DNA of 64,000 bases from Bdellovibrionota bacterium (GTDB lineage: Bacteria; Bdellovibrionota_C; UBA2361; CAKMMH01). The translations under genes and the position numbers were made by a program. The notes beneath the pieces are model-generated. The model made no database searches, had not been told where the DNA came from, and was given only the letters and a program-made list of their open reading frames with translations. The DNA lies in assembly GCA_050952645.1 (NCBI GenBank), contig JBMNLI010000010.1, positions 96,001 through 160,000 on the forward strand. The letters run 5' to 3'. Within the stretch, counting starts at the first letter, position 1. Each line of letters opens with the position of its first letter. Of this stretch, positions 11,430 to 22,856 are shown piece by piece.

Positions 11430-12152
11430 ATGGAAAATAAAAGCAAGCAAGACCAAAATTTTTATTCGCATTTAAAGGAGCTTAGAAAGAGAGCTTTTAT
11501 ATCGCTTAGCTTTATTGTCCTATTTGCGATTATTATATACGCCTTTTCTCCAGACATTATCAAACTTATCGATAAGCAATTTAAAAGTTATTTTCTAGAC
11601 ACGGATTTAATTGGCAAAAGCCCTATCGATGCTTTTTTAGTAAGATTAAAAATTTCTGCATTCTTAGGCTTTTTACTTTCTCTTCCTATAATTTTATTTG
11701 AAATATGGGAATTTATAAAACCAGGATTAATGAAGAAAGAAAAAAAATATTTTTTCTTATTTTTAACTATTGGAAGCTTTCTAGGAATAGGGGGCGCTCT
11801 TTTTTGTCATTTTTTAATAGTTCCTATCGCACTTAAATTTTTTTATAGTCAGTATAAACTACTTTCTTTAAAACCGATTATCCACTTTAACGATTATATC
11901 ACACTTATCATAAAGTTTGATGCTACTTTTGCTCTGATTTTCGAGCTTCCAATTATTCTAGTAATTTTAGCAAAATTAGATTTAGTAGATAGTACATTTT
12001 TAAAAAAATATTCTCGTCATGCAATACTAGTTATTTTTACACTAGCTGCTATTTTAACTCCGCCAGATGTGATAACTCAATTGCTAATGGCCATTCCGCT
12101 AGTAGTTTTATATTTTTTAAGCATCTACTTAGTTAAGATTTTAGTAAAGTAG
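11430..12152 (+). CDS. tatC: twin-arginine translocase subunit TatC
   Basis: HLKELRKR, WEFIKPGL, FELP, AAILTPPD. Confidence 0.96.
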   Translation: MENKSKQDQNFYSHLKELRKRAFISLSFIVLFAIIIYAFSPDIIKLIDKQFKSYFLDTDLIGKSPIDAFLVRLKISAFLGFLLSLPIILFEIWEFIKPGLMKKEKKYFFLFLTIGSFLGIGGALFCHFLIVPIALKFFYSQYKLLSLKPIIHFNDYITLIIKFDATFALIFELPIILVILAKLDLVDSTFLKKYSRHAILVIFTLAAILTPPDVITQLLMAIPLVVLYFLSIYLVKILVK

Positions 12153-12165
12153 TGAGCTTTGCCTT

Positions 12166-12197
12166 ACCTTAAATTAACATCTTAATTGACATTTAAG
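12166..12197 (+). repeat. 32-bp direct repeat, left copy (right copy 16581-16612)
   Basis: ACCTTAAATTAACATCTTAATTGACATTTAAG is identical at both positions and brackets the whole array/intron/IS block. Confidence 0.9.
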
Positions 12198-12220
12198 TCT
12201 TCACATTTTAAGTTAGCATT

Positions 12221-12629
12221 ATATCTCACGCCACGGAGCCTAAAAGAAAATCTCCGCAACCTAAAAAGCTAGCTCCAATTTTCTTTTAAGCTAACAAAAA
12301 ACAATTCATTAACATGATATATCTCACACCACGGAGCCTAAAAGAAAATCTCCGCAAACTAAAAAGCTAGCTCCAATTTTCTTTTAAGCTAACAAAAAAC
12401 AATTCATTAACATTATATATCTCACACCACGGAGCCTAAAAGAAAATCTCCGCAACCTAAAGAGCTAGCTCCAATTTTCTTTTAAGCTAACAAAAAACAA
12501 TTCATTAACATTATATATCTCACACCACGAAGCCTAAAAGAAAATCTCCGCAACCTAAAAAGCTAGCTCCAATTTTCTTTTAAGCTAACAAAAAACAATT
12601 CATTAACATGATATATCTCACACCACGGA
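12221..12629 (+). repeat. 98-bp tandem repeat array, left part (about 4.2 units)
   Basis: CCACG(G/A)A recurs at 12231, 12329, 12427, 12525 and 12623; each full unit has the stem GCCTAAAAGAAAAT..ATTTTCTTTTAAGC. Confidence 0.95.
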
Positions 12630-13006
12630 ATAGGGTAGAGCGAGGGCTATACCCTCTCCCTCCCGTCTCACCGTACGTACGGGTCTCGTATACGGCGCTC
12701 CATTAATATAATATCAAGTAATACTCAGGTAATACGTCAAAGGGTCGATTAAACCAATTCGTTCCTTTGTTTTACGCCCCAATATTTTAGGGCTTAATGC
12801 ATAATTCACTACGTACCACGAACTGCGTCTATACCAGCCGAGTCTGCTGTTAGCAACCTTATAGATTTCTTCATTTCTAAAATTGCAACCAAGCATTCGG
12901 TTCAATTTCTTAAGATTTAGATCCTTAACTTTTCAAAAAAGTTCACCTAAACAAATAATCAATTAAAATAAATAAGAAATAATCGTTAAATTATGCATTT
13001 TTTTAC

Positions 13007-13035
13007 TTGCATCTGTGTATTTACTATGCTATACT
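13007..13035 (+). promoter_or_regulatory. sigma70-type promoter of the transposase
   Basis: TTGCAT-N17-TATACT with extended TG; SD AAGGAGG before the ATG at 13068. Confidence 0.6.
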
Positions 13036-13067
13036 TTTAGTGCAACCGTTAACCTAAAGGAGGTTTT

Positions 13068-14756
13068 ATGAATTACAATCGAACAGTTCCATTACCAGAG
13101 CAAAGAAATAAAATAATTATAAGAGAAAAAGGGGAAGCAAAATATGTGCTTTTTGAATACGATCGCACTTATAATAAAGAGAAACAGTATACTAATCCAA
13201 AGCGTAGCGTTATTGGAAAATTAGTTGATGGTAGAGATGATATTATGTACCCTAATGACAATTATAGTAATTATTTTCCAGATGCCCCTATGCCCGAGAA
13301 ATTTTCAGACGCTTCACGCAGTTGTTGTCTTCGTATAGGTCCCCACTTGGTGATTGAAAAAGTAGCAAATGAATTTAATTTGCCTTTTTTACTAAAAAAA
13401 CATTTTGGTGAACGTAGTGAACTTATACTTGATTTAGCGAGTTATTTTATTGTAAATGAAGAGAATGTCAGTCAGTATTATCCAGACTACGCCTTTTCTC
13501 ATCCACTCTTTACAAAAGGTATGCGCATCTATAGTGATTCTACCATAAGTCGTTTTCTTTCTTCTGTTAGCAAAGAGCAGATAATTAACTTTCTTGACGA
13601 TTGGAACAAGGGAAAAGATCGCAATCAAATGGTTTACGTTTCATATGATTCGACTAATAAGAACTGTCAAGCAGGTGATGTTGAATTAGTAGAGTTTGGT
13701 AAAGCGAAAGACGAAAAAGGATTCCCAGTATTTAATTTATCCATTGCCTTTGATCAAACGAATAGAGTTCCGTTATTTTACGAAGAGTATCCTGGTTCTA
13801 TTACAGACGTTTCTCAATTTACTCATATGGCAGATAAGGTTATAGAGTATGGATATAAAAAGATAGGATTTATTTTAGACCGTGGTTATTTTAGTAAATA
13901 TAATATTCAATATATGGATAATAGTGGTTTTTCTTTTTTATTGATGGTAAAAGGGTGTAAGGCTTTAGTTTCTAAATTAGTAGAAGAAAACAGGAATACA
14001 TTTGAGTCTAAAAGAGACTGTAGTATTCGCTTATACAAGGTATATGGCACTACAGTGAAATCAAAATTATATGATGATGATAGTAAGGAGCGTTATTTTC
14101 ATGTTTATTTTAGTGCGGAAAAGCAAGCATTTGAGAGGGAGCAACTAGAAATTAAATTAGAGGAGTTTGAACAATTTTTAAAAAACCATATTGGCAAAGA
14201 TACAAAGTTTGGACAAACGTATAAGCAATTTTTTGATTTAAGTTATGACAATCAAGGAAAGTTAAGAAAAGTAGAAGAGAGAGCAGATGAAATTCAAAAG
14301 GCTCTTAATTTATGTGGGTATTTTTGTCTTGTTAGTTCGGAAGAAATGAGTGCTAAAGAAGCTATAATACTTTACAAGGGTAGAGACGCAACTGAGAAAC
14401 TTTTTGCTATTGATAAGACTTTTTTAGGCTCAAAAAGTATGAGAGTTCATTCATCTCAGGCAGTATCTGCTAAAATTTTTATAGAGTTTATAGCACTTAT
14501 AATTCGCAATCGCATTTATATTCTACTTAATGAAGAACTTTCTAAGCTAACAAAAAAGCCAAACTATATGAATGTTCCTGCCGCATTAAAAGAACTTGAA
14601 AAAATTGAAATGGTAAGAGGGAGTAAGGATTTATATCAGCTGAGCTATGCAGTAAGCAAAAGACAAAAAACTATATTAAATGCGTTTGATATAGATGCTG
14701 ATAAGGTAAGATTAAAAGCTGCTCAAATAAATAAAAAATTACAAAAAAAATTTTAG
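13068..14756 (+). CDS. DDE transposase, IS1634-like
   Basis: 562 aa; YDST, GKAKD, YPGSITD, ILDRGYFS, YKGRDATEKLF; stop codon lies inside the right IR. Confidence 0.9.
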   Translation: MNYNRTVPLPEQRNKIIIREKGEAKYVLFEYDRTYNKEKQYTNPKRSVIGKLVDGRDDIMYPNDNYSNYFPDAPMPEKFSDASRSCCLRIGPHLVIEKVANEFNLPFLLKKHFGERSELILDLASYFIVNEENVSQYYPDYAFSHPLFTKGMRIYSDSTISRFLSSVSKEQIINFLDDWNKGKDRNQMVYVSYDSTNKNCQAGDVELVEFGKAKDEKGFPVFNLSIAFDQTNRVPLFYEEYPGSITDVSQFTHMADKVIEYGYKKIGFILDRGYFSKYNIQYMDNSGFSFLLMVKGCKALVSKLVEENRNTFESKRDCSIRLYKVYGTTVKSKLYDDDSKERYFHVYFSAEKQAFEREQLEIKLEEFEQFLKNHIGKDTKFGQTYKQFFDLSYDNQGKLRKVEERADEIQKALNLCGYFCLVSSEEMSAKEAIILYKGRDATEKLFAIDKTFLGSKSMRVHSSQAVSAKIFIEFIALIIRNRIYILLNEELSKLTKKPNYMNVPAALKELEKIEMVRGSKDLYQLSYAVSKRQKTILNAFDIDADKVRLKAAQINKKLQKKF

Positions 14757-16386
14757 GTGAACTTTTTTGCAAAGTTAAGGTAGATAGATTCGTCTCGGCA
14801 ATTTCCACTGTTTAAGTATTATAACCCTCACTTTGTGTCTAAGCCATTGACCATATTTATCTATAAAAGTCTTAAGAGTTCCTATCTTATAATAGTTTAT
14901 CCAACCTTTAATTAACCAGCTTAGCTGTTGAAATGTCGAACCTAACGTTCGTGCCATTGCCTTCCGTCTACAAAGAATTTCTCTAGTTTTATCATAGAGT
15001 TTTCGTTTGCGATCTTCAGCAGGTTTACATTTCCAAGTTTTATACCCACTCTTCCAGTAGGTAAAGCCTAAGAAAGTGCTTTCCGTCGGCCTAGAGATTT
15101 TACTCTTACTTGAATTAATTTTAAGTCGTAGCTTACGCTCCAACCAACTCGCAACGGACTTCATTACTCTATTAGCAGCCTTTTCACTTCTAACAAATAT
15201 ATTACAGTCATCGGCATATCTAACAAACTTAAGTCCTCTTGCTTCCAGTTCCTTGTCGAGCTTATCAAGGTATATGTTAGATAATACTGGGGATAATGGA
15301 CCTCCTTGCGGAACTCCTTTCTCACTTACAGTAAACAATCCATCTTCCATTATACCAGCTCTTAAGAACTGTCTTATCAATCGTAGTGTCTTCGCATCTT
15401 TGATGCGTTCCCTGATTATCGAAATTAATTTGTCGTGATTAACAGTATCAAAATATTTCTCTATGTCTAGGTCTATAACCCAATCATAGCCTCTTTTCAA
15501 GTACTCAAGAGTTCTATATACTGCTAGATGGCAATTCCTTCTAGGTCTAAAGCCATAGCTACTATTACTAAAATACTTTTCGTATCCGCGTGCTAGTATT
15601 TGCGCTACCGCTTGTTGAATTACCCTATCTACTACTGTAGGTATTCCTAAAGGTCTCATCTTACCATTAGCTTTAGGTATATACACTCTCTTAACTGGAC
15701 TCGGCTTATAATTCCCTTCACGTATCTGAGATTTTATCTCTTCTCTGTGAACGGCAAAATAGTCTTCAAGCTCATCTACTGGCATATCATCTACACCAGA
15801 TGCACCTTTATTTCGCTTAACAGCCTTTATAGCCTCATCTATATTTTTGTCTGATATAATTAGTTCAATCAATTCCACCTGTTGCTCCTCCCTCTGTTTG
15901 TAAAGCTACTAGAAAACACCCCCTCTATCTTCTGCCCCCACAGGTTACGTTCCTGTTTGTTAGGCATATCTTCAATTTCGGACTCTTCTAGCCTTGCTTA
16001 CAGTGATTCACAATATATTAACGTTCAACCCTTCCTTGAGTGGTGTCTCAAGTACTATGGTATCAACTGACTTCCAGATATAAGCTTTATATCGCACGTG
16101 CATAGCACGCTATCTGGACCTCCCGGGGTAAGGCATAGTTCTTTCACCAGACAACCTCCAGATTTACTCGTTTGGTTTTACGTTTGTCTTTAGGGCTTCG
16201 GTTTGTAGCGCAACCTCACCCACCATTTAGCCTTGTATCTGGTTTCTGTTCGTAGGCTCCTTGGTTTTGATCCGCCACTTCCTTCACTCTAACATTACTG
16301 CTTCGAGCTTGTGGCATCACTACACTTGGTGACAACTACCCGTGACGGGACTTTCACCCGCTAGAACTATGTCGTGCCCGGCACAC

Positions 16387-16553
16387 GCCTAAAAGAAAAT
16401 CTCCGCAACCTAAAAAGCTAGCTCCAATTTTCTTTTAAGCTAACAAAAAACAATTCATTAACATGATATATCTCACACCACGGAGCCTAAAAGAAAATCT
16501 CCGCAACCTAAAAAGCTAGCTCCAATTTTCTTTTAAGCTAACAAAAAACAATT
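16387..16553 (+). repeat. 98-bp tandem repeat array, right part (about 1.7 units)
   Basis: Resumes at GCCTAAAAGAAAAT exactly where the left part was interrupted; second stem at 16485. Confidence 0.95.
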
Positions 16554-16600
16554 TTTCTTGACCTACTTAAAACGTGAAGAACCTTAAATTAACATCTTAA

Positions 16601-16629
16601 TTGACATTTAAGGTAAATTTAGCTAATAT
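16601..16629 (+). promoter_or_regulatory. sigma70-type promoter of tRNA-His
   Basis: TTGACA-N17-TAATAT ending 16 bp upstream of the tRNA. Confidence 0.65.
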
Positions 16630-16645: not shown

Positions 16646-16722
16646 GGTGGATATAGCTCAGTTGGTAGAGCCCCGGATTGTGGTTCCGGTTGTCGTGGGT
16701 TCAAGTCCCACTATCCACCCCA
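16646..16722 (+). tRNA. tRNA-His (GTG)
   Basis: G-1, acceptor stem GTGGATA/TATCCAC, anticodon arm CCGGA-TTGTGGT-TCCGG, TTCAAGT T-loop, encoded CCA. Confidence 0.97.
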
Positions 16723-22782: not shown

Positions 22783-22856
22783 GCGTCCTTAGCTCAGTTG
22801 GATAGAGCATTTGGCTTCGAACCAAACGGTCGGGGGTTCGAATCCCTCAGGACGCA
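22783..22856 (+). tRNA. tRNA-Arg (TCG)
   Basis: Acceptor stem GCGTCCT/AGGACGC, anticodon arm TTTGG-CTTCGAA-CCAAA, TTCGAAT T-loop; CCA not encoded. Confidence 0.95.

Follow-up and report, generated by a model that had tools for sequence, protein, structure and literature searches.

Ten copies of a class IIC group II intron in a Bdellovibrionota genome, nine of them at the internal hairpin of an ISL3-type miniature inverted-repeat transposable element

A 64,000-nucleotide (nt) stretch of the genome of a Bdellovibrionota bacterium (positions 96,001 to 160,000 of contig JBMNLI010000010.1, assembly GCA_050952645.1; hereafter, the window) carries a class IIC group II intron inside an array of 98-bp hairpin repeats, and nine of the ten copies of this intron in the genome follow the same kind of hairpin, the internal inverted repeat of an ISL3-type MITE (miniature inverted-repeat transposable element). 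We consider it probable that this is an ordinary hairpin-targeting IIC intron, that its ten copies are likely separate, recent insertions, and that nine of them likely lie at the MITE hairpin because that hairpin supplies most of the host sites fitting the IIC targeting rule. Each component belongs to a known type, and there is no clear sign that the intron has specialized; what is new is a MITE as the main supply of sites. At the window locus, the elements are nested four deep: the ISL3-type MITE contains the 98-bp array, the array contains the class IIC intron, and the intron contains an IS1634-family insertion sequence (IS). An earlier reading of the window made from the letters alone (the sequence-only reading) had described the outer three layers, which hold to the base, and did not mention the fourth, a 1858-bp IS1634 element in the open reading frame (ORF) of the intron.

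The 10 intron copies in the genome are 99.7 to 100% identical, five of them with a full-length ORF, and the read depth of the intron (~10 times that of its flanks in runs X1 and X3) is in line with this number. The proposal that the MITE hairpin is the target, made from the window copy, held when the other copies were compared: rather than lying mostly after ordinary terminators, 9 of 10 follow the MITE internal hairpin, six at its left arm (including the window copy) and three at its right arm on the other strand. The tenth copy (C15) follows a compact, G+C-rich, terminator-like hairpin. All 10 of the 5′ exons end in RGC, 3′ exons start with T in 9 of 10 cases, and 9 of 10 copies have a common 13-nt exon end. 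Two of the right-arm copies have MITE sequence on both sides and one (C7:31508) has a non-MITE 3′ flank, a low-complexity stretch with a decayed end-like motif ~225 nt on (L174:2903-3130; C7:33402 onward). This flank may be the trace of a recombination event involving two intron copies, or of a deletion.

On both strands, the internal inverted repeat of the MITE ends in TTTTCTTTT-RRGC, followed by T. The host has 94 such arm sites, 9 of them occupied, a large intergenic reservoir in agreement with the supply of sites proposed earlier. Non-ORF, non-MITE DNA has 41 canonical terminator-like sites; RGC/W stands at the right distance in just one of them, the occupied site (C15). When the rule was relaxed (−7 to −3 kcal/mol), the number of non-MITE rivals was 5, 11, 25, 38, and 89, and the MITE share went from 95% to 51%. 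At a MITE share as low as ~70%, the finding of 9 of 10 copies at MITE hairpins is unremarkable (P ~0.17, calculated by hand), and at 51% it is an excess (P ~0.01). We conclude that supply under the ordinary IIC rule explains most of the bias, leaving room for a residual preference or selection beyond supply. The host encodes Rho, and the whole genome (1.9 Mb) has just 43 canonical terminator-like hairpins in non-ORF DNA under the rule used.

Several points weigh against an explanation by supply. The canonical terminator rule was chosen with the C15 site already known, the ORF mask was crude (at least 120 amino acids [aa]), and the sample comprises 10 copies in one assembly. Broad hairpin rules leave the MITE with 22 to 69% of non-ORF candidates over seven rule sets (Fisher P values from 9 × 10−6 to 0.056); with a share of 22 to 51%, 9 of 10 copies represent a genuine excess (9 × 10−6 to 0.004 in five sets, 0.053 and 0.056 in two). 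Many of the non-MITE candidates that these rules admit are long-range A/T stems of doubtful reality. The excess may reflect targeting, selection against other insertions, or both. In addition, all 6 occupied left-arm sites have the 3′ exon TYCGTG, compared with 17 of 51 empty ones (post hoc P = 0.003), and none of the 18 left-arm sites with TTCGTC is occupied. Finally, intron position 526 (window 15861), a synonymous position in codon 6 of the intron-encoded protein, is G in all three right-arm copies and A in all six left-arm copies and C15, a match to the arm with odds of 1 in 84 (post hoc).

Position 526 is the sole common substitution in the first 1590 nt of the introns. The G form may be the older one, since runs X5, X6, and X7 carry it. 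Run X7 (on L173) represents a diverged strain with several host differences per few hundred bases, in which the intron is ~99% identical and has ~3 times the depth of its flanks. An empty-type joint was present in run X7 at depth 10 and may come from any MITE copy; read-derived contigs do not reach across the window locus, and they allowed no empty allele to be assigned to a particular site.

Because the host MITEs have diverged while the introns are near identical, the simple reading is that the intron inserted separately into already diverged MITEs. We aligned 29 MITE rows, 7 of them intron-bearing full-length MITEs (7 of the original 36 rows lacked the right-arm motif and were dropped). Intron-bearing MITEs differ by 7 to 30 substitutions per ~218 nt (8.8%, versus 11.0% among empty copies), whereas the introns differ by at most 0.3%. 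Intron presence needs 7 changes on the MITE tree, compared to a shuffled mean of 6.4, and the nearest MITE copy is empty for 6 of the 7 intron-bearing ones, with a tie for the seventh. Tandem or paralogous siblings of intron-bearing MITEs are also empty. Two right-arm hosts have a marker in common, which 2 of the 55 motif matches carry; these hosts differ from each other at 11 of 174 positions, and the sharing of markers over 30 doubletons is at the chance level (P = 0.77).

A search with the 5′ 507 nt of the intron gave 1 weak match in 60 related genomes, and the nearest proteins are in Clostridia and Erysipelotrichaceae records; together, these results suggest that the intron arrived recently in this host. 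The relatives have 57 to 77% protein identity. We took 42 of 160 loci (at least 57% identity and enough upstream DNA), and all 38 that gave a clear 5′ end and flank follow an ordinary hairpin. The exons of relatives are mutually unrelated in two multicopy genomes, with mean identities of 5.9 and 7.5 of 16 positions, versus 13.1 here. Among same-family genomes that are 80 to 94% complete, and in which repeats may be unassembled, the arm motif was found in 0 of 3 and RVT_1 in 0 of 4.

In the window, the repeat element (12198-16583) lies between tatC (11430-12152) and a transfer RNA (tRNA) gene (16647-16719). Its features, with exon-binding sites (EBS) and intron-binding sites (IBS) where assigned and RT standing for reverse transcriptase, are as follows.

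12169..12197, plus strand: 29-nt direct repeat, left copy (32 nt with ACC), in a weak hairpin 3′ of tatC
12198..12212, plus strand: terminal inverted repeat at the left end of the ISL3-type MITE, without the outer GGY
12220..12629, plus strand: 98-bp array, units 1 to 4 and the start of unit 5 (stems at 12238, 12336, 12434, and 12532)
12630..16386, minus strand: class IIC group II intron
12630..12700, minus strand: domains V and VI, with the CGC triad
12923..14780, plus strand: IS1634-family element (562-aa transposase at 13068-14756)
14775..15878, minus strand: intron-encoded RT/maturase, cut by the IS (RVT_1 and GIIM)
16206..16209, minus strand: EBS1 (GCUA) in the Id3 loop
16387..16440, minus strand: target hairpin of unit 5 (5′ exon), with IBS1 being AGGC at 16390-16387
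16441..16553, plus strand: remaining array with the unit 6 hairpin at 16485
16566..16583, plus strand: right terminal inverted repeat, ending GAAGAACC, the same as the ends of the full ISL3 at C10:339480-341339
16584..16612, plus strand: 29-nt direct repeat, right copy

The stretch at 12220..12629 is the 3′ exon of the intron on the minus strand, with IBS3 being the T at 12629. The tRNA (anticodon GTG, His) begins 63 nt past the right end of the element, and two further tRNAs of the window are at 22783 and 53491.

Six 54-nt hairpin units start at the four stem positions listed and at 16387 and 16485. In silico removal of the intron gave a single array (period 98, 5.9 copies, and 98% match by Tandem Repeats Finder), as the sequence-only reading had proposed, and the joined flanks rebuild an array unit, bearing out an exact junction without target duplication. 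Each hairpin offers one site per strand, leaving 11 unused motif sites in the array, five on the minus strand and six on the plus strand, where the sequence-only reading had counted five.

The assignment of the repeat to an ISL3-type MITE family, which agrees with its earlier identification as a MITE, draws on its ends, its target duplications, and a full ISL3 partner. A genome search with the end motif gave 251 matches, 76 pairs of which lie within 5 kb. Perfect 8-bp duplications flank 8 of the 19 MITE elements with intact GG..CC ends, and other lengths score at most 2. The terminal inverted repeats start with GGYTCT, which they have in common with the autonomous ISL3 of the same genome. That element is a single full copy (C10:339480-341339) of 1860 bp, with the same ends and a PF01610 transposase (NF033550, 229 bits; cut-off, 180) in an apparently intact 423-aa open frame. 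Among the 40 of 45 matches listed, hairpin-type MITEs have just 24 to 31 terminal bases in common with this partner, from which their interior therefore does not come, and a second, ~260-bp derivative family keeps ~218 nt of the ISL3 right end. The MITE family totals ~25 kb in 160 masked loci, and 0 of the 117 loci of at least 80 bp lie inside an ORF of the mask. Its stems are A/T rich, with 10 to 17 pairs and an inner part of 26 to 84 nt. Tandem arrays built from the MITE or from its core are present at ~10 other loci (among them C9:42988-43744; C10, with 130-, 200-, and 272-bp periods; C17, with 161- and 292-bp periods; and C7, with 280 bp), so that the 98-bp array would be a normal product of the family. 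Three intron copies (window, C7, and C17) lie inside such arrays.

The window MITE is atypical in that it has a 29-nt direct repeat (versus the 8-bp duplication of the family) and a left end without the outer GGY. This 29- to 32-nt repeat of a weak hairpin (12166-12197 and 16581-16612) possibly records an aberrant ISL3-type insertion into a palindrome. Elsewhere, MITE ends at C6:23221, C12:89293, C7:161440, and C14:19246 are flanked by the same bases, suggesting that a larger segment is repeated; among these, the C6 copy alone carries the intron. A role of the MITE as a terminator substitute was rejected: MITEs are not enriched in gaps between convergent genes (23 of 114 versus 158 of 867 gaps; P = 0.61) and are mildly depleted between divergent ones (P = 0.02). 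A consensus scan at the array found no terminator and promoter-like matches at chance level. An attC or integron origin of the array was likewise rejected, with no integron integrase over the cut-off in a genome that is 93.75% complete (22.8 bits versus 265).

The intron runs from 16386 to 12630 on the minus strand and has the ends GTGTG...AT. Rfam family RF02001 matched with 106.7 bits, subthreshold matches to RF01998 and RF00029 stop exactly at 12630, and Rfam support covers domains I, V, and VI. A CGC triad in a short domain V is a class C (IIC) feature, and the domain V of this intron carries the triad. The intact protein is a 433-aa group II RT/maturase (TIGR04416, 410 bits; cut-off, 300), in which RVT_1 and GIIM were found and no endonuclease domain was. 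Its best relatives of solved structure are 7UIM (362 bits), which we take to be the Eubacterium rectale IIC protein, and the GsI-IIC RT (337 bits), versus 165 bits for LtrA. We accordingly place the intron in class IIC, on protein similarity rather than on a tree of intron classes; the boundaries, domains, endonuclease-free RT, short EBS1-IBS1 pairing, and 5′ hairpin all favor the class originally proposed. At 12668 in domain V, the window copy has a base that no other copy has, and a pair at the foot of this domain is thereby broken. All four read runs compared show only the other base, and the difference may be a private base or an assembly error.

The window intron is 3757 nt long, versus 1893 to 1899 nt in the other copies, because the IS1634 element sits inside it. 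This element has 29-bp inverted repeats, a 5-bp duplication (TAGAT), and a transposase matching NF033559 (251 bits; cut-off, 100). The genome holds 9 copies of it, with a 5-bp duplication readable at the junctions (6 bp fits one). Its insertion into the RT gene came after that of the intron and shortened the RT/maturase from 433 to 367 aa. With its RT gene cut, the window copy has likely lost its mobility, unless an intact copy supplies the function in trans. A read joint skipping the IS was present in all four runs, as expected from the other nine intron copies.

On the intron strand, the window hairpin has 14 pairs (13 Watson-Crick and one G-T; −10.3 kcal/mol; z, −4.2; 0 of 200 shuffles as good), and the plus-strand fold of the array hairpin is weaker (−5.9; z, −1.8). 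The predicted EBS1, GCUA at 16209-16206 in an 8-nt Id3 loop, pairs with AGGC at 3 of 4 positions, one of these pairs being a wobble. Both its placement and this pairing had been put forward earlier, and the placement gains support from covariation in relatives: in the 28 of 40 loci that could be parsed, many of which are copies of one intron and thus not independent, Watson-Crick pairs form with different bases at −1 in 27, −2 in 25, −3 in 20, and −4 in 16. GCUA matches the exon end at 4 of 4 positions at the non-MITE site (C15) and at 3 of 4 at every MITE site. IBS1 falls within the final four pairs of this 14-pair stem, and the stem left for recognition would be ~10 to 11 pairs, ending 3 to 4 nt before the junction. 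Eight of the 10 copies are on the G-rich strand (by GC skew), versus 50 against 53 for empty arm sites (P = 0.055), a tendency in the direction that the parts of PMC8919778 drawn on here describe for class C.

The following course of events seems likely. The MITE core may have been amplified in tandem to give the array, and the intron would then have entered unit 5. By what is known of IIC biology, the hairpin would form at the replication fork, and its bottom four pairs would melt, freeing IBS1. The endonuclease-free intron ribonucleoprotein would reverse-splice into this single-stranded DNA, and the host fork would prime complementary DNA synthesis.

Could the intron instead be specialized on the MITE hairpin, as IIC-attC introns are on attC, with its protein reading the A/T-rich arm or nearby exon bases and the MITE being the true homing site? 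The 13-nt exon end common to nine copies, the excess over broad site sets, and the left-arm TYCGTG bias all fit this idea, and a hint comes from run X7, in which the intron contig extends into the MITE arm by 21 letters, short of the 31 that the bridging rule requires. However, EBS1 is mismatched at −4 at every MITE site and fully matched at the non-MITE site, the sole canonical compatible terminator is occupied, and relatives use unrelated terminators. Moreover, the copies are near identical, implying little time in the host. We regard such specialization as unlikely. It is still less probable that the intron lands on many hairpins and that selection removes the non-MITE copies, leaving the MITEs as neutral ground. 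The intergenic position of MITE loci and the persistence of the excess under loose rules are consistent with such selection, and the non-MITE 3′ flank of the C7 copy may record a lost site; however, the comparisons used non-ORF sites alone, and relatives tolerate insertion after terminators. Spread of intron-bearing MITEs as a unit, by recombination between MITE copies or as cargo of the ISL3 transposase (the transport envisaged by the sequence-only reading), is very improbable: the single-nucleotide polymorphism at 526 that tracks the arm, the two right-arm copies with a common marker, the apparently intact ISL3 transposase, and the 2.1-kb length of MITE plus intron, near that of ISL3, speak for it, but the MITE distances, the tree with its empty nearest copies, and the chance-level doubleton markers largely refute such spread for the present copies.

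Returning to an ordinary IIC intron with a MITE-dominated supply of sites, a broader extension, which we regard as improbable, is that MITE hairpins constitute a third natural class of IIC target besides terminators and attC sites and that a MITE family gives an intron of Firmicutes type a foothold when it enters a host that is poor in terminators and uses Rho, with specialization on the arm just starting. The genome provides a countable natural test of what limits the spread of IIC introns. In Firmicutes, each copy of this intron lineage has a terminator of its own, whereas here ~50 to 99% of plausible sites belong to a single MITE family. Should this hold more widely, the places open to IIC intron expansion would be set by how many mobile hairpins, and not terminators alone, a host supplies. 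Stems as long and A/T rich as those of the MITE, with such large inner parts, also add to the kinds of DNA hairpin apparently acceptable to a IIC protein.

In the parts of the published accounts drawn on here and below, reviews describe IIC introns as targeting terminators and attC sites (PMC4424553, PMC8643678, and PMC12584367), and an "other inverted repeat structure" is also allowed for (PMC7923331). The literature searched, which largely omits subscription papers, gave no case of a IIC intron with a MITE as its target; a group I intron carrying a MITE represents the reverse nesting (PMC4853749). Like the terminator-targeting IIC introns B.h.I1, O.i.I1, and GsI-IIC (RT in PDB 6AR1), the intron described here encodes an endonuclease-free RT/maturase. 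It also resembles them in its short EBS1-IBS1 pairing plus EBS3, a hairpin just 5′ of the insertion, and a possible strand bias (PMC4424553, PMC8643678, PMC8919778, and PMC7923331). Their target is a compact G+C-rich terminator, whereas here it is mostly an A/T-rich internal inverted repeat of a MITE, used on both strands. IIC-attC introns likewise have tandemly arranged, repeated DNA stem-loops as targets, inserting within them or directly behind them, and occasionally use terminators (PMC7923331). In contrast to theirs, the sites here end in RGC, without TTGT/T, the hairpin as read from the sequence is without conserved AAC/GTT boxes at both ends, and no cassette genes lie between the units.

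RmInt2 of Sinorhizobium meliloti offers another parallel, being recently acquired, with all of its copies in an inverted repeat of a mobile element and two opposite-strand sites per element (PMC4615759). Its site, however, is in the terminal repeats of the autonomous ISRm17 and is read by EBS1, EBS2, and EBS3 pairing (PMC4615759), whereas the intron described here uses the internal hairpin of a nonautonomous element and has no EBS2. As for the MITE itself, the closest match is the 187-nt, ISL3-mobilized MITE of Microcystis aeruginosa, the ends of which start with GGCTCTTC and which has 8-nt duplications, a stem-loop interior, and an ISL3 partner (PMC11448079). The part of that account drawn on reports no intron target (PMC11448079), whereas the MITE described here serves as one, and its core also forms tandem arrays.

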